Source: a virus. Taken from it: a DNA stretch of 64,000 nt. Each line of letters opens with the position of its first letter. Position 1 is the stretch's first letter. This document shows positions 3,501 through 57,860 of the stretch, in pieces. The notes beneath the pieces are model-generated. The model was not told the origin of the DNA, ran no database searches, and worked only from the letters and a program-made list of their open reading frames with translations. The stretch covers positions 90,361 through 154,360 of the IMG/VR virus record IMGVR_UViG_3300042884_001120; one strand, given 5' to 3'. The position numbers and the translations under genes are program-made.

Positions 3501-6346
3501 ATTAAAGCCGCTTTTCTTGTGGCAATTTCTTCTTGATACGAGCGCTTGACATTTGGAATTTGAAAAGCTAGTAGTGTTGCAAAACTTGTAAGTTGCGCGC
3601 CAACAGCTGTAACAGTTGAACTAATACTAGTACCATCTCCCTCTGCAAAATTTGGTATATATCCCTTTGCATAACCACGATTTGACATCGCGCGTTTATC
3701 GGCTGAGGTAGAGCCCTCGTCTCGCTTGTTAAACACGCCAACACCCATTGGATTACTAGAATTTACTAGCTCTGGATATTGTCTGGTATATATGCCGCTC
3801 TTCGGTACTCCAGCGCCAATTTCGCGTGATATTGATTCGTTTAAGGCATTTGCAAAGTTAGGAATATAGCCACTTGCAAATCCGGGCTTTCTTCTTGCTG
3901 GCTTACCGGGTGCTTTTCTTTTCGTTCGCTGTTCGGCACTGCTTCCAAGTATGGCATCTCTACCACCCCTTTCTTTAATAACTTTATCAGCAAAACTTAA
4001 AAGATTACCAGAAGATGCGGATACTTTAAAATCAGCAAGATTTCCAGCATAACCAAATAATTGTTTTAATTTATCAGCGTTTTGTCCACCCCTTACGTCA
4101 AAATCTCCCATATTTGCTGTAGATTTTGCCGCTATATAATCTAACGATTTAGATATAGCAACTTCAAACGCAGACCCAACAAAACCCTGTAAAGCGCCAT
4201 AAGCACCCCTAGACCCACCATCTTTTTCACTTAAAAAACTCTGACTCAGAACTGATTCATCAACACCCTGACCAAGTGGTTGTAAAGTTTTTATATAATC
4301 AGCAACTGTCTGTAATCCTTGTTTTTTTATCAACTCATTTAAATTACCAGCTGGTTTTACTGCGCCCTTTTTATATCCACGGACTGGTATATCCGTTACT
4401 AATATATCTCTATTATTTTTTCCAACTGAACTTGCGTTCGGAAATGTTCCATATTCTGGAACTAACACGCTTGCATTAGAGTTTATACTAGTTTTTGCAT
4501 TAGATTCTGCAAAATTAGGAATATATCCACGACCATACATTGGAATAACAGCAGAATCACCATTTTTACCAAATCTTGGTATTTCCACTTCTTCACTATT
4601 CTTAATAAATTTCTTACCACCAATAGTTCCTCTACTTAATTGCGCCCTTGGGTTTTTAGCACCTAATGCTTTAGCTTGCGCTTCTTCCATTGCGTACTGA
4701 TCAGCAAAATTTGGAATATAACCAGCGGCTTTCGTAGTTACTGGGACTTGACTGCCCTTTGGAACTCTAACACCAGCGCCAAATAAATTTTTTGATATTT
4801 GGGAAGTTAATGCGGCCTGTTGCTGCATTTGTGTAGTTTGTTGCTGAAGAACTGTTAATAAAACCTGAGAAGCCTGATTGACACTCATTGCCCCACTCGC
4901 CATTTGTTGATACAGCTGTGGATTTTTTGCTAATATTGCAGAAATACTAGCTTGAATACCTTGCTGTTGAGATGCCGTTGCGTTTAAACCTAGCAACTCC
5001 TTCACACTTCCTGCTGAAAATTTTGCGAAGTCTCCAAAAAGTTTTAACAAAACACCACCAACAAGTGCCAAACCGGGACCAGCGATAATATCTCCTAGCC
5101 CCTTTAAGATGCCATTTCCAATTTTGCCGCCAACACTTTCGCTATCTACATTATTTAAAGACTCTAATAAACTATTTCCTCCACCAACTAAATTTTCTAG
5201 CGCTGGGCCAAAAAGAGACTCTCCAGATTTTGCGGCAAACTGGGTTGCATTTTGCTTTAGGGCGTTAACTTGCGCAGCTAAAGTTTTGTTTAATTGATCA
5301 TTTCTTGTAATCGCCTCGTTTGTCGCAGTAGAAGATATTTGAACTGCGTTATTATAAACAGAATACTCTTTACCCAAATCAGATAGGGCAGCTTTTAAAA
5401 TGTTAATCTGGAAAACACCACCGACAGCTTCAGCAACCGAAGCCTGTTGTTGAGAGCCAAGAGTATCATAAACCTTTCCAAGATCTTTTAATAAATCAAT
5501 AGTTGATCTTAGTTGTCCACTAGCATCCGTAGTTTCGATACCGAGACTACCAAGTAAGTCAACAACCTTACCACGCTGAAGCCTTGTAAAAATTGTCTTA
5601 AACGAGTTACCAATAACTGCACCACCACGGGCAGTTGTCTGCTGTGCAGAGGTAACCAAACCAATAAGTTCATCTAACTGAACACCAGATTGAGAAGCAC
5701 TGCTACCAACACGACTAATTGCTTCTGCCAAGTCAGCGGAACTAACCGCGAACGCCGCATCAACTGTTGCAAACTTATTAACTATTTGCGTTGCAGTTAC
5801 AGACTGAGAGGCGAAACTGTTAACAGCTGCCGTTAATGCCTCAACGCTCTTTACTGTATCTAAACCGCTTAATCTTGCTAAAATCAGGGCCTCGCTTGTA
5901 CGTTTTAGCGTCTCCTCTACACCAAGGCCCTGACGTGAAAATTCTGTAGCGGCCTTTGCGACTTCCGCAAACGACTGGCCGGTATTTTTTGCAACATTAA
6001 AAAGAGAATCGCCAAATTTAGCTATTTGTTTATCAGATACATTTAAAATTACATTAATATCTGCAAGAGATTTCTCTACTTCAATCGTAGATGTTATTAA
6101 TGATTCGAAAGCCTTATTTAAACCATATAAAATAGTTGCACTAGCACCGAAAGCAACAACACGCGCGTTTGCCGCATCCAAGGATTTATTAAATTCAGAA
6201 AGCTGTCCAGTAATTCTACCTAATGGCTGGTTGCCCTTAGTGCTTAAATTTAAATTAAGATTATACTGTTGATTAACTAGTTTTTGTATCGCAGCATATG
6301 CTGGAGATACATTAGCATTAATATTAACTGTTGCTTGTGCGGGCAT
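557..6346 (-). CDS. tail tape measure protein
   Basis: 1929 aa, Ala/Gln/Lys-rich helical; N-terminal TP901-like core (FAVSSADLAEAISRVG...IGNSFKTIFTRL); follows tail tube and chaperone genes. Confidence 0.9.
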   Translation of the reverse strand: MPAQATVNINANVSPAYAAIQKLVNQQYNLNLNLSTKGNQPLGRITGQLSEFNKSLDAANARVVAFGASATILYGLNKAFESLITSTIEVEKSLADINVILNVSDKQIAKFGDSLFNVAKNTGQSFAEVAKAATEFSRQGLGVEETLKRTSEALILARLSGLDTVKSVEALTAAVNSFASQSVTATQIVNKFATVDAAFAVSSADLAEAISRVGSSASQSGVQLDELIGLVTSAQQTTARGGAVIGNSFKTIFTRLQRGKVVDLLGSLGIETTDASGQLRSTIDLLKDLGKVYDTLGSQQQASVAEAVGGVFQINILKAALSDLGKEYSVYNNAVQISSTATNEAITRNDQLNKTLAAQVNALKQNATQFAAKSGESLFGPALENLVGGGNSLLESLNNVDSESVGGKIGNGILKGLGDIIAGPGLALVGGVLLKLFGDFAKFSAGSVKELLGLNATASQQQGIQASISAILAKNPQLYQQMASGAMSVNQASQVLLTVLQQQTTQMQQQAALTSQISKNLFGAGVRVPKGSQVPVTTKAAGYIPNFADQYAMEEAQAKALGAKNPRAQLSRGTIGGKKFIKNSEEVEIPRFGKNGDSAVIPMYGRGYIPNFAESNAKTSINSNASVLVPEYGTFPNASSVGKNNRDILVTDIPVRGYKKGAVKPAGNLNELIKKQGLQTVADYIKTLQPLGQGVDESVLSQSFLSEKDGGSRGAYGALQGFVGSAFEVAISKSLDYIAAKSTANMGDFDVRGGQNADKLKQLFGYAGNLADFKVSASSGNLLSFADKVIKERGGRDAILGSSAEQRTKRKAPGKPARRKPGFASGYIPNFANALNESISREIGAGVPKSGIYTRQYPELVNSSNPMGVGVFNKRDEGSTSADKRAMSNRGYAKGYIPNFAEGDGTSISSTVTAVGAQLTSFATLLAFQIPNVKRSYQEEIATRKAALIQVTTEEISQRREAAKQLSATQTQERNQLAQEIKDRRAKLKTIQAGGAETLSRGARNASRLQAGAGAAGTALAFAPIIAETVASSIDTTNKEGRVKSAAVTGIGTALSAAGTGALVGSALGPVGTAIGGALGLAVGGLTAWTKALNESRTNLPELQASTKKTSEEQSRLAEVTQAVLPKLEQLQELRQGGNAGSREAVALEKEIRAIASNASPEAQKAISAGGLDFAKTQKNLTDVLKTLSDRLAKQGAAVQSTSIAEAAIGGKINKEQFGAQISKQAISGKTDAELKAMGDELSSATIDLSKLRGALGLTEEQAGKLEQQFGNSWQSFAQDLAKAISEEKRIRLDGARNTAKGFVDRNQAAVKALQDFENKLKKVISSMDIATRTSIATSGAEFASDFKRTKSTGQVDILEALGFEKAASNLKTKNIYQDTIGAQQTKSAADIDEAIKQSLNTAFEKAIPTATGVKDFSQYNDIRGQLGDLSGVTGNQDFSKKIQDISAKIGSVKTNTIQGPLGPLEQYDTEGMISALKENGVKDEEQLNKLRETFNSNNKLLFAAQKDAATKTVQRLDELIKVTIQEMDKLGGTMDQMFNDGGMGDNSVSDKFTEATDNFIAVQKDTTATDEQRGQAASDWIKAYQATGGTIDTSNPMYQMAVESMAKIGQKQQASIEANLAKVGLDPAMAARTVRQTTGALTSEQGLMEAAKVKAGIAFKPTDANIQSARVEQLRGKQSDIISKLGPEGAALSATYGAATEEVNKIPDGIRSLGDVFTTQIGMSNGYLSNMVSILGGLAGQGAQLPGMAAQEVQKGGDLSTIFNPAVGMNSAALMGGRNLLESAPNQMYRERFTMPDAALESQRAQTLPGSPLANPYQGMMLSTQGEMDVIQRQKEETQRNMTQAQAGESSLSFNSPITIAINAASQAQGQQIQQELQGVDQEIIDVIQGRLAKVEAIAAATVTKDPSLNPPPKKPKPLFNVLGLNIT

Positions 6347-11528: not shown

Positions 11529-12068
11529 CTAATATAATTCCCTATAATAATTTCTATTATATTCTACAATAACATAATTATTTAAAGCCACTGTATCGTC
11601 CCCAACCACCTGATTTGGAGTAGCTTCATACTTTAGATACATTTTTACAGATTTATCTAAATTCTGCTTGGTGTCGGACGCAATACCCCTGAGAGTTTTA
11701 CTGACTTCATTTTTATTTACGCGACTTATTCTACTATCTCCCTCCGCAAGCGATGTCCAGTCTCCAGCCGCTGTGCTAGCGCTAATTGCCGTGTCTCTAG
11801 CCAGTTGTGAATAATAATTATATTCAAATACTAAAGAATAAATTGCTAACTCATTATTGCCCGGCTGTGGGGTTATTGCATATCCAGTTACCCCAGTTAC
11901 TCCAGTTATATATTCTGAAATATAATTTGTCCCAATTAGGTTATTTAGTTTACCTAAATTTGAATTATCCAACACCCATCCACTTACTCTACTTAAAGAA
12001 TAAGCGGTAGGTTCCCCAATCTGCCCATAAATACTATTTACAAAGTTGTCTAAATAATTATTGCTCAC
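11529..12068 (-). CDS. putative head-tail adaptor
   Basis: 179 aa; SLAEGDSRIS resembles adaptor beta-hairpin motif; synteny. Confidence 0.5.
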   Translation of the reverse strand: MSNNYLDNFVNSIYGQIGEPTAYSLSRVSGWVLDNSNLGKLNNLIGTNYISEYITGVTGVTGYAITPQPGNNELAIYSLVFEYNYYSQLARDTAISASTAAGDWTSLAEGDSRISRVNKNEVSKTLRGIASDTKQNLDKSVKMYLKYEATPNQVVGDDTVALNNYVIVEYNRNYYRELY

Positions 12069-41268: not shown

Positions 41269-42075
41269 ATGAAAGCACTAAACCTCACACTACACTGCGG
41301 CGGTCACGAAGTCTCCACGGAGCAGGTCGCAAACTCCATCACCCCCAACGCCACCGAGTCGTGGCATCCAATCCCGCACTCTCGCATTATCGAGGGACTG
41401 CGCGAGACGGTCGCAACCGCTGGCCTTGAAATCGTGCAGGAGCGTCATGCTCTCGCTCGTGACGGTCAACGCTACTTCGGCCTTTTCCAAGTGTCGGGCA
41501 TTCCTAACTTTTCCCTAGCGGAAACCGTGGGGACTGTTATCGGCTTGCGTAACTCTCACGACAAGTCATTCCCTGCTGGCATCAACGCTGGTTCCGCGCC
41601 TTTCGTGTGCGACAACCTCGCGTTTCACAACGAAATCAAGATCGCTCGTCGTCATACAAAGTTCATCTTGCGTGACCTTCCCATGCTTCTTGCTGGAGCG
41701 TTCGGCAAGCTCACCTCTGCATGGGGCAACCACGCGAAGCGTGTGGAGGCTTACCAGTCCTGCACTATCAACGACAAGGACGCTCACGATACCATCGTCA
41801 AGGCGTATCGTTGCGGCGCGGTCTCCAAGACTGCCCTTGCGGACGTGGTCGCACAATGGCACGAACCCGAACACGCGGTGTGGGGTTCCGAGCGCAATCT
41901 GTGGGGTCTTCACAACGCCTTCACCAATGTCCTGCGAGGTAACGCAATGGCCTTGCCTCGTCGCTCGGATGCGCTTCACGCCTTGCTCGACCCTCTTGCA
42001 GGGATCGCGGCCCAACAGGTCGTGGAGGCTCAGGACTTGCCGCCAGCACCTCTCGAACTCGCGCCGATCGTCTAA
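41269..42075 (+). CDS. DUF932-family protein
   Basis: IGLRNSHDKS...FVCDNLAF...RRHT; LWGLHNAFT. Confidence 0.7.
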   Translation: MKALNLTLHCGGHEVSTEQVANSITPNATESWHPIPHSRIIEGLRETVATAGLEIVQERHALARDGQRYFGLFQVSGIPNFSLAETVGTVIGLRNSHDKSFPAGINAGSAPFVCDNLAFHNEIKIARRHTKFILRDLPMLLAGAFGKLTSAWGNHAKRVEAYQSCTINDKDAHDTIVKAYRCGAVSKTALADVVAQWHEPEHAVWGSERNLWGLHNAFTNVLRGNAMALPRRSDALHALLDPLAGIAAQQVVEAQDLPPAPLELAPIV

Positions 42076-42917: not shown

Positions 42918-43205
42918 CGCCGCAAGCGCCTGTCTTACAAGGCAGGCCGGGCGGGGCCGGGTGCTGTAAGTCTCTGATACTGAACAACTTAACTGGGCTT
43001 GACAAGCTATCCAAGTTGTGTTATACTTATATAAGTGAGAAACTAATAAATCCCACAAATTAGTTATATAGTTTTTGGGTTAGTTTTTCAGATATGAGGG
43101 ATGGGTATAAGTGCATCGGAAACTATTTAAGGGGATATCGCTCGTAAATCTCGCCCCTATTTGAAATAAACGGCATTCGTAAATTGGATTTTTTTGAAAA
43201 AGTGT

Positions 43206-43234
43206 TTGACGCTATGGGAAAATAAGTTTATAGT
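43206..43234 (+). promoter_or_regulatory. sigma70 promoter of tRNA/ncRNA operon
   Basis: TTGACG-17-TATAGT. Confidence 0.75.
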
Positions 43235-43299
43235 AATAATACGCACTGACCTAGCAGTGTCTAACACAATCTAGGACGATCTTTAACAGAACATTTCGA

Positions 43300-43371
43300 C
43301 GCAGAGTAGAGAACTGGTATCTCGTCACGCTCATAACGTGAAGGTAGTGGGTTCGATTCCCGCCTCTGCCA
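43300..43371 (+). tRNA. tRNA-Met(CAT), initiator-like
   Basis: cloverleaf; C1:C72 mismatch, A11:U24; anticodon loop CTCATAA; no encoded CCA. Confidence 0.8.
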
Positions 43372-43375
43372 GACT

Positions 43376-43499
43376 TGACTAGGCGCAAGTTCCGAAAGCT
43401 AAAGGAACTCCCGCGATAGGTGATAGCGAAGCCCAGTGCACAGGGAACGTGTAGCCTATAAGATAAATCTCCGCGAAAGTGAATGAGATTTTCTAGTCA
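43376..43499 (+). ncRNA. candidate structured RNA A
   Basis: TGACTAG/CTAGTCA closing stem with internal hairpins; no ORF. Confidence 0.5.
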
Positions 43500-43512
43500 T
43501 AACAATTTAACA

Positions 43513-43726
43513 CTCTCATGTTGTAGGCCATAGTCCATGAGAGGGGTAAGACCGAGTTGCTTGTTGGTGTGTTTGTAGGTCTTATTCAAGCTAGGTTAGC
43601 CAAATGCCTTGGTAAGCTACGATCCTAGCAGTTTTGTAAAACACAAGCTAGACGGTTTATACGGGCTCCATGCCCGAGGATCGTTGATACGAAGGAACAA
43701 ATTCTAGAACAAAATCCTTCTTACCA
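43513..43726 (+). ncRNA. candidate structured RNA B
   Basis: multiple stems and loop-tail complementarity; ends ACCA. Confidence 0.45.
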
Positions 43727-43733
43727 TTAATTT

Positions 43734-43958
43734 TTGTAATGCTACCAAACGCACGTCTCAAGTCGTGGGAGGTCGGATACCGAAGCCGATGTGAATGCAG
43801 AGAGCAAAGCCGTGTATGTGAGGGGCCACATATCCTCTATCTATGGGGGGAACATAGAAACTTGTAGGTCGGAGCAGGGAACCCAAATCCGACAAACCCT
43901 GTGCGATTGCAACGCCGAATCCTTTAGCGAGGATAGCGCTCGACGGAGCGGCAGGGTC
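43734..43958 (+). ncRNA. candidate structured RNA C
   Basis: long-range closing stem, several hairpins, possible pseudoknot. Confidence 0.5.
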
Positions 43959-43965
43959 AATTTTT

Positions 43966-44041
43966 ATACGGCAATGTTCCAAGGCTGGCGAGTTGGTCTC
44001 CAAAACCGACTGGGAAAGTTCGATTCTTTCGCCGTGTGCCA
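43966..44041 (+). tRNA. tRNA-Trp(CCA)
   Basis: ATACGGC/GCCGTGT acceptor, loop CTCCAAA, encoded CCA; atypical D arm. Confidence 0.8.
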
Positions 44042-44086
44042 TTGTAGTATTTGACACCCTAACCAAAAAACTATTATCATACAGTA

Positions 44087-44323
44087 ATGAAATACTTCCC
44101 ATTCTTTGCCGTTCTATCTGTAACAATAGTTTCCTTCCTTGTTTATCAGGATCACAAGCCACACAAGACGCCGATGTTCCGTTACTCTCCAAAACTTGCC
44201 ACTTCGGAGGAACAGGTAGCCGCACAAGAAAAACAATTGGTTAAACATATTGTTTGGCGCAAAATGCAAAATAAGGTAAAACAAATCAATTCCACTCAAG
44301 GAAAAGATTTCATAGGTTTCTAG
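44087..44323 (+). CDS. membrane-anchored hypothetical protein
   Basis: TTGACA-18-TATCAT-6-ATG; N-terminal TM. Confidence 0.6.
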   Translation: MKYFPFFAVLSVTIVSFLVYQDHKPHKTPMFRYSPKLATSEEQVAAQEKQLVKHIVWRKMQNKVKQINSTQGKDFIGF

Positions 44324-44646
44324 TTGACACGGCAGTAATCTTATTATAATATAAAAGTCATGAGAGACCCCATCACACTACTGATTAACCTACTTGGTTA
44401 CGAGAAGCGCAAGCCATCACTGCTACTCATGCATATGATAGAGTTTACGCACTCTAATTGGCGGCAGGACTTGTTCGCGCAGAATCGTATTAGTGATTAC
44501 GAGTATAAATTATATAGTTAATTGTTGATAATCAATGGGTTACGTGGACCAAGGGGGCCCGGCGCTGTAAGTTGCTGATAACCAATGAGTTATTAAATTG
44601 TAAAATTGTTCTTGTGCTAGTAGGCAAGAAGGTCTAGTATAGGTGA

Positions 44647-45222
44647 ATGATCACCCCTACCGAAATCACCAATTACAATCGCACCGAGGCTGAACTTGAG
44701 GAGTTCCTTATGTTTGCAATCCTCGTTGCTGGCAAGACGGCAAAGATGCAAGCACAAAAGCTGGAGAACTTTCTTAATCCCATGATGTCCACTATGGGCT
44801 TGACTCCCTTCGGTGTGCTAGAGCAGATGATCAAGACTGCCTCCCTAGGCACTCAGATGAAATTCGCTAGGTTGGGTCAATACAAAAGAATTGAAACTGC
44901 ATTCCGGCAAATCCTCACCTTCAAGGGGGATCTGAAAAAGATTAGCGTACAGGATCTAGAAAGTGTTAAGGGAATCGGAAGTAAGACGGCGCGATTCTTC
45001 GTGCTTCATTCGCGCAAGGATGTGCGTCATGCGGTTCTTGATGTTCATATTTTAAAATGGATGAGGGGGCAGGGATATAGCGCGCCCAAGCAAACGCCCA
45101 CAAAAAAGAAGTATGCTATCCTTGAATCTCAGTTCTTGACTGAAGCATGGGAGCGTGAAATGACTCCTGCTGATCTAGATCTTATGATCTGGAAAAGTTT
45201 CTCGCAGAAAGCCCTTGCGTGA
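44647..45222 (+). CDS. HhH-GPD DNA glycosylase/AP lyase (Ogg-like)
   Basis: VKGIGSKTARFF...AVLDVHILKWM...DLDLMIW. Confidence 0.8.
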   Translation: MITPTEITNYNRTEAELEEFLMFAILVAGKTAKMQAQKLENFLNPMMSTMGLTPFGVLEQMIKTASLGTQMKFARLGQYKRIETAFRQILTFKGDLKKISVQDLESVKGIGSKTARFFVLHSRKDVRHAVLDVHILKWMRGQGYSAPKQTPTKKKYAILESQFLTEAWEREMTPADLDLMIWKSFSQKALA

Positions 45223-45271: not shown

Positions 45272-46030
45272 ATGCAACTCGACTTCATCGGAAACTCAAT
45301 CTCAACTACTAATACTAATGCAATCGAACAATCAAGATTCTGGGATAATGATTTTAATCGGATCACTATTAACCGCCCTCGCCTTGATACTACGAAAGTA
45401 GATAAGTTTTTTAATTCAATTTTAGACGAGGAGATCGCCGAGTATTCAAAATACTGGGATAGTGTCACGCCTCGCAACGCTTCCGAAGTTTTTCAGCGTT
45501 GGTTGTTCGCATTCATGAGCGTCCATACATCATGGCGTTCAAACATTAACGGATACCTAATGATCCGTAACTGGTGGGAGTGGATGAACAAGCCAGAGGA
45601 GCTTGAGCGTAGGATCGTAGAGAGTGGTGCTGGCCTCCATAAAAACCGCACAAAATTCATTACAGCTTTTGCTGAACACTATTGGGCTAATATTGATTTC
45701 TACAAGAAAGCAGAGGACGAGTCATGGGTAGAGTTTCGTGATCGTCTGGTAGACCAAGTGCTTGGCCTTGGCATGGCGAAAGTTAGCTTTAGCCTTGAGA
45801 TGGTTTATCCCTCTATTGCCGAGGTGACTTGCATGGACACTCACTTGTTCCAGTTGTTCGGATTGGATCAGACCAAAGACAGCAAGCAGTATCACGCGAT
45901 GGAGCGTCATTGGATTGAAATGTGCAAAATGTGGAATGTTAGCTCGTATGTCGCCCGTTGTATCTGGTGGGACAGAAACCAAGGCTACGGAGACAGCCGA
46001 TATTGGAGCTTTGTTTTAGAGAAGGAGTAG
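45272..46030 (+). CDS. second HhH-GPD DNA glycosylase-like protein
   Basis: VLGLGMAKVSF...TCMDTHLFQ...YHAME. Confidence 0.7.
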   Translation: MQLDFIGNSISTTNTNAIEQSRFWDNDFNRITINRPRLDTTKVDKFFNSILDEEIAEYSKYWDSVTPRNASEVFQRWLFAFMSVHTSWRSNINGYLMIRNWWEWMNKPEELERRIVESGAGLHKNRTKFITAFAEHYWANIDFYKKAEDESWVEFRDRLVDQVLGLGMAKVSFSLEMVYPSIAEVTCMDTHLFQLFGLDQTKDSKQYHAMERHWIEMCKMWNVSSYVARCIWWDRNQGYGDSRYWSFVLEKE

Positions 46031-47837: not shown

Positions 47838-47932
47838 TGGAAGTGGGTATGGGAATCGAACCCATGCTCGTCCCTCATCTAGGGAACACAGATTATAAGT
47901 CTGTCGGTGCTATCCAATTACACTAACCCACC
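47838..47932 (-). tRNA. tRNA with TAT (Ile) anticodon and long variable arm
   Basis: ACAGA-CTTATAA-TCTGT; TCCCT/AGGGA variable stem; U73; CCA. Confidence 0.8.
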
Positions 47933-57769: not shown

Positions 57770-57860
57770 TGGAGGAGCGAGTGGGATTCGAACCCACGGA
57801 ACCGGTTAGGGTTCGGCTGTTTAGTAAACAGCTCCTTTATGACCGCTCAGGCACCGCTCC
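57770..57860 (-). tRNA. tRNA-Ser with ACT anticodon
   Basis: class II cloverleaf, GCTGT-TTACTAA-ACAGC, CCA. Confidence 0.8.

Follow-up and report, generated by a model that had tools for sequence, protein, structure and literature searches.

Region C (43732–43957, + strand) is a conserved, non-coding, structured phage RNA in three parts, the first of which (43732–43809), judged by comparison of sequences, is very probably a genuine twister ribozyme. It lies in a 594-nt spacer, poor in open reading frames (ORFs), that extends from tRNA-Met to tRNA-Trp (both on the + strand) in a 64,000-nt stretch of DNA (the window), which makes up the final 64 kb of an IMG/VR record of 154,360 bp from an uncultured phage (IMGVR_UViG_3300042884_001120), a record with direct terminal repeats. 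The twister class of self-cleaving ribozymes has been known since 2014, and the ribozyme described here is a new variant of that class that scores below the Rfam threshold. It is followed by an optional mid-domain and a 3′ four-way junction, neither of which is catalogued in Rfam. We consider it probable that region C as a whole is a composite module in a polycistronic precursor of tRNAs and non-coding RNAs, in which a twister cut would be combined with a junction-bearing downstream RNA. A first-pass annotation of the sequence had described the region as an undescribed, ribozyme-sized RNA. Its picture of a conserved, non-coding RNA with many stems was borne out by covariation and by the lack of Pfam matches, and the predicted ribozyme brings with it real pseudoknots; the word "undescribed" suits the mid-domain and the junction but not the 5′ third, which belongs to a known class that the Rfam gathering score misses.

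In a permissive Rfam search, the type-P1 twister family RF03160 matched at 43733–43808 (25.8 bits, E = 0.0066) and was the sole non-tRNA match in the spacer; at gathering thresholds, Rfam reported only tRNAs in the window. Relatives that match RF03160 scored 45.4, 37.5 and 36.9 bits, likewise under the gathering score of that family (67.2 bits). In the RF03160 alignment, loop L4 is UCUCAAGU in the window and UCCCAAGC in the consensus, L1 is GAGAG as opposed to GAGGG, and L2 is ACC as opposed to GCC. Of the two twister pseudoknots, T1 joins L4 to L1 by three Watson-Crick pairs, and in T2 a conserved GC dinucleotide of L2 pairs with two bulged nucleotides of L4 (PMC5408937). The loop differences thus amount to two compensated pseudoknot changes, from CCC:GGG to CUC:GAG in T1 and from GC:GC to AC:GU in T2. 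We attribute the low RF03160 score to these changes together with the missing P3 and the inserted P5, and we conclude that an entire phage sub-family in which the pseudoknot changes are compensated escapes the Rfam twister models. The window twister scored 68.6 bits with a covariance model (CM R2) that we derived from 22 twister domains, and this model found one copy in the phage genome. The string CAGAGAGCAAA, which the first-pass annotation had read as an echo of bacterial RNase P RNA, is the L1/T1 strand of the twister joined to the 3′ strand of P1. The same annotation had judged that the region is not RNase P, GOLLD or ROOL, and correctly so, as none of these matched at the gathering score or at E ≤ 10 (43000–44300 and 43805–43970 searched); the cmscan check that it proposed did bring up a known family, in the form of the sub-threshold twister.

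Because the single-sequence folding energy of region C is no better than that of shuffled sequences (z = 0.22), support for the fold is comparative and not thermodynamic. The neighbouring protein encoded at 45272–46030 was used to retrieve 34 related viral loci (loci and contigs are given here as L numbers), five of which contained region C according to nhmmer, and twister-core pattern scans of IMG/VR yielded 22 and 31 stretches. When genome_contigs was scanned with the twister pattern, at least 120 stretches matched, of which only three were true twisters (L222, L249 and L273). We aligned 62 hits of CM R2, of which 51 were distinct and came from unrelated phage contigs. Over these 51 sequences, the full structure including both pseudoknots was paired in 87.6% of cells, compared with 70.7% for shuffles and 30–47% for slid registers. 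Both-side changes were found in all 8 P1 pairs and all 3 P4 pairs, P4 was 100% paired, and the three pairs of P2 were almost invariant. T1 was also 100% paired, its middle pair being UA in 46 sequences, AU in 3 and CG in 2. The pairing rule for T2 was kept, in that sequences whose L4 has AAGC show GC in L2, and those with AAGU show AC; the GC:GC form occurs in relatives of the CAC:GUG type, and AC:GU is the form in the window.

With class rules for the scissile bond taken from PMC5408937 and PMC11662667, cleavage is predicted at U43737/A43738, which would leave a 2′,3′-cyclic phosphate upstream and a 5′-OH downstream. The nucleotide before the predicted cut is U in 47 of 51 sequences, the AA after it and the G after P2 are invariant, and the U..AA of L4 is conserved. 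Several observations nevertheless weigh against a functional twister in the window. The RF03160 score of 25.8 bits is far under the 67.2 bits of the gathering score. The window copy has a mismatch (U43743 and U43796) at the fourth position of P2 and a P1 of only 4–5 bp, and either could lower activity, though both are common in the family: among the 46 relatives with letters at both P2 sites, 15 have U-U and 20 a standard pair. Furthermore, T1 and most of T2 are invariant in the closest family, partly because the search patterns fixed them, so that their covariation comes from five more distant sequences. The low score, the U-U, the short P1 and the unremarkable folding energy could all be read as signs of a decayed or chance look-alike that does not cleave, leaving region C a structured spacer only. 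We regard this as very improbable, since the class-defining helices and both pseudoknots are kept by compensation throughout the 51 sequences and the catalytic positions do not vary. In addition, natural twisters in a large assay tolerated imperfections except in the pseudoknots and catalytic residues (PMC11662667), a result that matters here precisely because the window copy carries a U-U in P2 and a short P1.

The optional P3 and P5 positions of the twister are filled by unrelated hairpins in relatives, and P5 is reported in only ∼1% of annotated twisters (PMC6154101). In the window, P5 is the hairpin GTCGG/CCGAT (43772–43776/43786–43790) that the first-pass annotation had listed. The other strings and local hairpins listed with it are present as well, at the positions given there, and most are kept with compensatory changes in relatives: TATGTG/CACATA, TCTATG/CATAGA and GTCGGA/TCCGAC are hairpins M1–M3 of the mid-domain, and ATCCT/AGGAT and GCTC/GAGC are helices H2 and H3 of the 3′ junction. 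The pairing of ACCCTG with CAGGGT also exists, but as the ordinary closing helix P-a of the junction and not as the pseudoknot that had been suspected.

The 3′ four-way junction shows covariation in its helices. In 15 sequences, every cell of P-a and H3 is paired, and three of the H3 pairs differ on both sides; RNAalifold predicted P-a, H1 and H3 in type 1 members and all four helices in type 2 members, with compensatory pairs in each. H1 in relatives is either a short stem with the loop RUUGCAA(A) or, in type 2 members, a longer hairpin. The divergent L301 contributes compensatory changes to P-a (GUGCUG/CAGCAC) and to the H3 pair that closes the loop, and its sequence alone folds to the same junction as that of the window. 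No Rfam match to the junction was found at E ≤ 10, and a search of 43805–43970 with the most permissive filters likewise gave no Rfam match at E ≤ 10, including twister-sister, hatchet, pistol, hammerhead and HDV-like ribozymes. A pattern scan for the 3′ hairpin returned 7 viral stretches and 96 metagenome stretches, the latter mostly GC-rich chance matches with only 8 new true members. The junction occurs once in the phage genome; a search with a covariance model of the 3′ domain (CM R1) turned up no further copy, either across 759 kb of related loci or elsewhere in the phage genome, a single 16-bit match (E = 0.59) having been dismissed, and no junction was found in the more distant relatives L006–L035 within 10 kb of the marker gene. 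L041 and L055 contain a possible distant variant (GUCCCAG...AUCCU/AGGAU-AG...CUGGGAC), which we did not count because its own minimum free energy fold fails to reproduce the junction. Pairing of the H3 loop GACG with CGUC in the twister was rejected, as it is uncompensated in the P4 variants L070, L114 and L301. A tRNA-like reading of the junction was also rejected, given that 43897–43956 received no ARAGORN or tRNA-model call, that the H3 loop has 4 nt and that H2 is absent in L070.

A twister is present upstream in all 16 true matches to the 3′-domain pattern in the viral and metagenome collections, and more than 30 twisters of this variant have no junction domain. The constant association in one direction could mean that the junction, alone or with the mid-domain, is itself catalytic (a new self-cleaving class) or that it switches the neighbouring twister. 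Loops GACG and RUUGCAA(A) and strands CGA and AG are conserved beyond what the helices need, there is precedent for new classes found by association with twister and hammerhead ribozymes (PMC6765202), and the H1 loop can pair with the cleavage-site strand in the window and in L002. However, this last pairing is uncompensated in L079 and L070, and the H1 of type 2 members is of another form, without the loop motif. The domain is present in a single copy per genome, lacks an internal loop of the kind found in known small ribozymes, and gave no Rfam ribozyme match at the permissive cut-off above. Its distance from the twister ranges from 0 to ∼95 nt through optional modules, and such variable spacing makes a second catalytic or regulatory domain less likely. 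We therefore think that a catalytic or switching junction is improbable. A further proposal is that the junction represents a new functional RNA class, which could act as a ribozyme in its own right or make use of the twister-made 5′-OH as an effector or regulatory domain; this too we hold to be improbable, but if it were so, the twister-junction unit would be a phage gene dedicated to a small RNA that plays a part in infection. The association is also open to a plainer account that tells against a functional link between twister and junction, namely shared descent in one phage clade: the search pattern came from close relatives, and the divergent L301 was found only through its twister.

Between the twister and the junction lies the mid-domain, the hairpins of which covary. 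It is present wholly or partly in L004, L107, L119, L073, L025 (part) and L081 (part), and absent in L002, L003, L005, L050 and L114. When read by eye, M1 and M2 each resemble a small H-type pseudoknot formed by pairing of a C-rich 5′ flank with a G-rich loop, and flank and loop change together (GCC/GGC versus CCC/GGG; CCUC/GGGG versus ACUC/GGGU versus UCCC/GGGA; also by eye). Again by eye, tandem flank-loop hairpins of this pseudoknot-like kind, with a GGGG-type loop, are seen in the window, at L079:2391–2429(−) and at L073:2052–2150.

Regions A and B, which separate tRNA-Met from region C, are modules of one precursor with C, and the three are not one RNA. According to nhmmer, B immediately precedes the twister at 11 or more distinct viral loci, A is 5′ of B in L278, L286, L293 and L305 (plus duplicates), and tRNA-Met is upstream in L276, L278, L283, L293 and L297. 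For B, RNAalifold predicted 40 pairs, 12 of them compensatory. Other combinations are seen as well: C can stand without either A or B, A can lack B, and A-B-twister can lack the junction. L002 lacks both B and the mid-domain, and twister plus junction without an A or B match occurs in at least nine loci (L003, L004, L005, L025, L079, L081, L107, L114 and L119), with a promoter-like site 10–60 nt upstream of the unit in the three scanned (L003, L005 and L079; 3 of 3). B by itself is a conserved structured RNA of ∼210 nt (for example L297:9348–9569, L050:3558–3779 and L293:1137–1350), and an ACC(A) motif is kept in it 10–15 nt before the predicted cut.

The first-pass annotation had raised the possibility of a different arrangement, in which A, B and C form a single large undescribed RNA of ∼580 nt. 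Such an RNA would be closed by the long-range pairing (TTGTAAT..CGCAC with GTGCG-ATTGCAA) that the annotation had proposed for a domain of C. A, B and C are indeed probably co-transcribed (one promoter and no terminator were found), several phages share the A-B-twister synteny, and the 12-bp helix can form in the window, where 12 of 12 pairs are possible. However, although L002 retains 11 of the 12 pairs, the 13 other homologues have at most 8, so that the helix is absent in 13 of 15, and its strands belong instead to P1 and the cleavage site, P4 and H1. Moreover, the modules occur independently and in differing combinations in relatives, a predicted self-cleaving site splits B from C, and the searches for GOLLD, ROOL and RNase P were negative. 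One large RNA is therefore extremely improbable.

The twister variant is found in three settings: at the head of a twister-junction unit, after A-B and before a hairpin and terminator, and before a Shine-Dalgarno sequence and ATG. The second is seen in sister phages (L278, L279, L282, L283, L286, L293, L297, L305 and L045), where the twister is followed by the palindromic hairpin GAGUUCGAACUC and then by a canonical GC-rich terminator, making mini-units of A-B-twister-terminator. The third is seen at L277:3993–4072, L287:10673–10738(−), L288:9705–9771(−), L304:2640–2704(−) and L036:7879–7948, where the twister lies directly before the Shine-Dalgarno/ATG and the 3′ strand of P1 overlaps or abuts the purine-rich ribosome-binding region. 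Separation of upstream from downstream RNA by a cut would be the common denominator of the three settings, and we therefore conclude that the role of the twister is likely transcript punctuation. Such a role would fit the suggestion that bacterial and phage ribozymes process polycistronic transcripts (PMC6765202).

In the window, a sigma-70-like promoter-like site upstream of tRNA-Met (43206–43234) probably drives the whole chain, that is, leader, tRNA-Met, A, B, C and tRNA-Trp. No terminator-like sites were found in a scan of the + strand from 43000 to 44500, and the next good + strand promoter is only at 44051, so that the chain is most simply one transcript. A leader hairpin (CCUAG...CUAGG, within 43235–43299) lies 5′ of tRNA-Met in the window and directly 5′ of the twister in L005 (8262–8307), L081 and L114; tRNA-Met, A and B seem either to have entered the space between leader and ribozyme or to have been lost from it. 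A coding function for region C was rejected, as the ORFs that overlap it had no matches in a Pfam search and the module-sized indels among its homologues have lengths that three does not divide. BLASTN of the spacer against 50,697 GenBank phages gave no matches.

In the mechanism that we propose, the twister would fold and then cut co-transcriptionally at the predicted site. The cut would trim the 3′ tail of B to a short, defined tail ending in a 2′,3′-cyclic phosphate, and would give a downstream RNA of ∼228 nt (43738–43965) that begins with a 5′-OH in place of a triphosphate and comprises the ribozyme body, two or three small pseudoknot or hairpin modules and the four-way junction. The 3′ end of this RNA would be produced by RNase P at tRNA-Trp; in relatives without the tRNA, the end would be made by termination or processing in the conserved U-rich tail. 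In units that lack A and B and have a promoter close by, the cut would remove only a short triphosphate-bearing leader, which suggests that the twister-junction RNA is itself a product. Our best guess is that the junction serves as a 3′-terminal body that stabilises a small phage RNA free of 5′-triphosphate, or as a protein-binding part. At the position of the junction behind the twister, sister phages have a plain hairpin and an intrinsic terminator. The phage genome had no match to RtcB or to the RNA_ligase family (PF09414), so that nothing encoded by the phage speaks for circularisation or end-joining of the cleaved RNA; a search with T4 Rnl1 matched neither the phage genome nor any of the control genomes, and so bears on the matter in neither direction.

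The sister-phage arrangement also bears on the possibility that the junction and the U-run behind it are a mere branched terminator or 3′-end protection, in which case B would be the only cargo of the twister and C a 3′ processing cassette. Besides the small hairpin and canonical terminator that take the place of the junction in those phages, this possibility gains from the U-run that follows P-a in every homologue, from the new promoter that follows in L003-type loci, and from the at least 11 loci in which B adjoins the cleavage site. However, in the at least nine twister-junction loci without A or B, which have promoter-like sites close upstream where scanned, the downstream RNA would be the only cleavage product. 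The U-run starts 3–5 nt from P-a, and the scan for intrinsic terminators (a GC-rich stem with a U-tract within 0–2 nt) did not call the pair. In the window, as in L002 and L073, where the same arrangement is found, tRNA-Trp follows 9 nt downstream with no promoter of its own, and the conservation of loops and junction exceeds what a terminator needs. We judge a terminator-only role unlikely, while noting that P-a with the U-run may be a weak or unconventional terminator. The composite module of twister and junction-bearing RNA, which we prefer, meets a difficulty at the same place, in that the U-rich tail is not called as a terminator and, in three genomes, transcription must continue through it to reach tRNA-Trp. 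Coordinates of all features are collected in Table 1.

Table 1. Features of the tRNA-Met to tRNA-Trp locus (window coordinates, all on the + strand).
Feature	Position	Basis
Promoter-like site, TTGACG-17-TATAGT, sigma-70-like	43206–43234	Promoter scan
tRNA-Met (CAU), upstream end of spacer	43300–43371	tRNA and Rfam scans
Region A	43372–43508	nhmmer; separate conserved module
Region B, ends ∼5–15 nt before twister P1	43509–43731	nhmmer, RNAalifold
Predicted type-P1 twister with P5 hairpin, without P3	43732–43809	RF03160 match, CM R2, covariation
P1, UUUUG/CAAAG	43732–43736/43805–43809	Alignment; all 8 P1 columns covary
Predicted scissile bond U^A; A43738, general-acid adenine	43737–43738	N^A step in Rfam alignment
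P2, UGC/GCA	43740–43742/43797–43799	Rfam alignment, comparative alignments
T2 pseudoknot, AC in L2 with G43762-U43763 in L4	43744–43745/43762–43763	Canonical form GC:GC
P4, CACG/CGUG, with loop L4 (43756–43763)	43752–43767	Alignment, covariation
T1 pseudoknot, CUC with G43802-A43803-G43804	43757–43759/43802–43804	Covariation; canonical form CCC:GGG
P5 hairpin, core GUCGG/CCGAU, optional peripheral stem	43770–43792	Comparative
Conserved G directly 3′ of P2, general-base guanine position	43800	RF03160 alignment; invariant
Mid-domain, optional	43810–43895	Comparative presence/absence
M1	43814–43820/43827–43833	Comparative
M2	43840–43845/43853–43858	Comparative
M3	43868–43873/43888–43893	Comparative
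Four-way-junction domain	43897–43956	100% of cells paired; compensatory changes
P-a, CCCUGU/GCAGGG, closing helix	43897–43902/43951–43956	Comparative
H1, loop AUUGCAA	43903–43905/43913–43915	Comparative
Junction strand CGA after H1 (family C-R-A)		Comparative
H2, optional, absent in L070	43919–43923/43930–43934	
Junction strand AG after H2 (family (U)AG)		Comparative
H3, 5 bp, loop GACG	43937–43941/43946–43950	Comparative
Conserved A/U-rich tail UCAAUUUUU between junction and tRNA-Trp	43957–43965	Homologue comparison
tRNA-Trp (CCA)	43966–44041	ARAGORN

The genes around the RNA cluster (Ogg-HhH-like, DUF932 and small ORFs) give no clue to RNA function, and clustering of neighbour genes showed only lineage synteny (a 53-amino-acid ORF and the Ogg-HhH-like genes) and no RNA-end enzyme. 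The Ogg-HhH-like genes are a tandem pair (44647–45222 and 45272–46030), each with a match to the 8-oxoguanine DNA glycosylase-like Pfam family barely over the cut-off, and they sit in the early region of the phage. DUF932 (E = 1.8e-10) is in the gene at 41269–42075, upstream of the RNA cluster. ARAGORN further reported tRNA-Ile(UAU) at 47838–47932 (95 nt) and a tRNA-Ser with anticodon ACU at 57770–57860 (91 nt), the anticodons and lengths of which are odd for a phage tRNA set.

Some of the twister-bearing contigs hold additional structured RNAs. L277, L280, L281 and L285 carry two or three twisters each. L036 is a related viral contig rich in ribozymes, with Twister-P5 over the gathering score (42 versus 37.6 bits) and HDV-F-prausnitzii near threshold (39.8 versus 44 bits) in its stretches at 5468–5525 and 11591–11661. 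Phage transfer-messenger RNA (tmRNA) genes are found in the twister-bearing contigs L045 (5230–5662) and L043 (8054–8488, − strand), and the abiF RNA motif is over its gathering score at L043:1516–1552(−).

The purpose of bacterial and phage twisters is still an open question (PMC6765202, PMC5408937), and this locus offers an unusually clear setting for it, since the predicted ribozyme is located at the seam between two conserved structured RNAs in a phage tRNA operon. The settings in related phages (at the head of stand-alone small RNAs, before terminators and before ribosome-binding sites) support a general role in RNA punctuation. With its uncatalogued junction domain and small pseudoknot modules, the locus also enlarges the set of phage RNAs whose function is unknown.

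Compared with the type-P1 twister (RF03160, clan CL00120; PMC5408937, PMC6154101), the element in the window has the same P1-L1-P2-L2-P4-L4 order, the N^AA context, the G after P2, the U..AA of L4, a T1 of 3 bp and a T2 of 2 bp, and the optional P3 and P5 sites. It differs from the canonical twister in its compensated T1 (CUC:GAG, not CCC:GGG) and T2 (AC:GU, not GC:GC), in a fourth P2 pair that is often U-U, in a score well below the gathering cut-off and, within the clade of the window, in the uncatalogued junction domain that is always found behind the ribozyme. GOLLD and ROOL, large ornate RNAs often located near phage tRNAs, and bacterial RNase P RNA, which has short strings in common with the window, had no model match there. 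Closer in setting are the theta ribozymes, minimal HDV-like ribozymes that adjoin phage tRNAs (bioRxiv 10.1101/2023.06.13.544163). Like these, the window element is a small, putatively self-cleaving ribozyme in a phage tRNA array, where it presumably processes the ends of polycistronic RNA. Unlike them, it is of another class and fold, its cleavage side adjoins B and not a tRNA, and a junction domain lies between it and tRNA-Trp.

The species 1 and 2 RNAs of phage T4 (rnaC and rnaD) belong to the stable RNAs of phage tRNA clusters whose function is unknown. By description, they resemble the RNA proposed here in being small, structured, non-tRNA RNAs that are co-transcribed with phage tRNAs and released by processing. 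In contrast to the T4 RNAs, which host RNases release, the RNA in the window would be set free by a ribozyme of its own.

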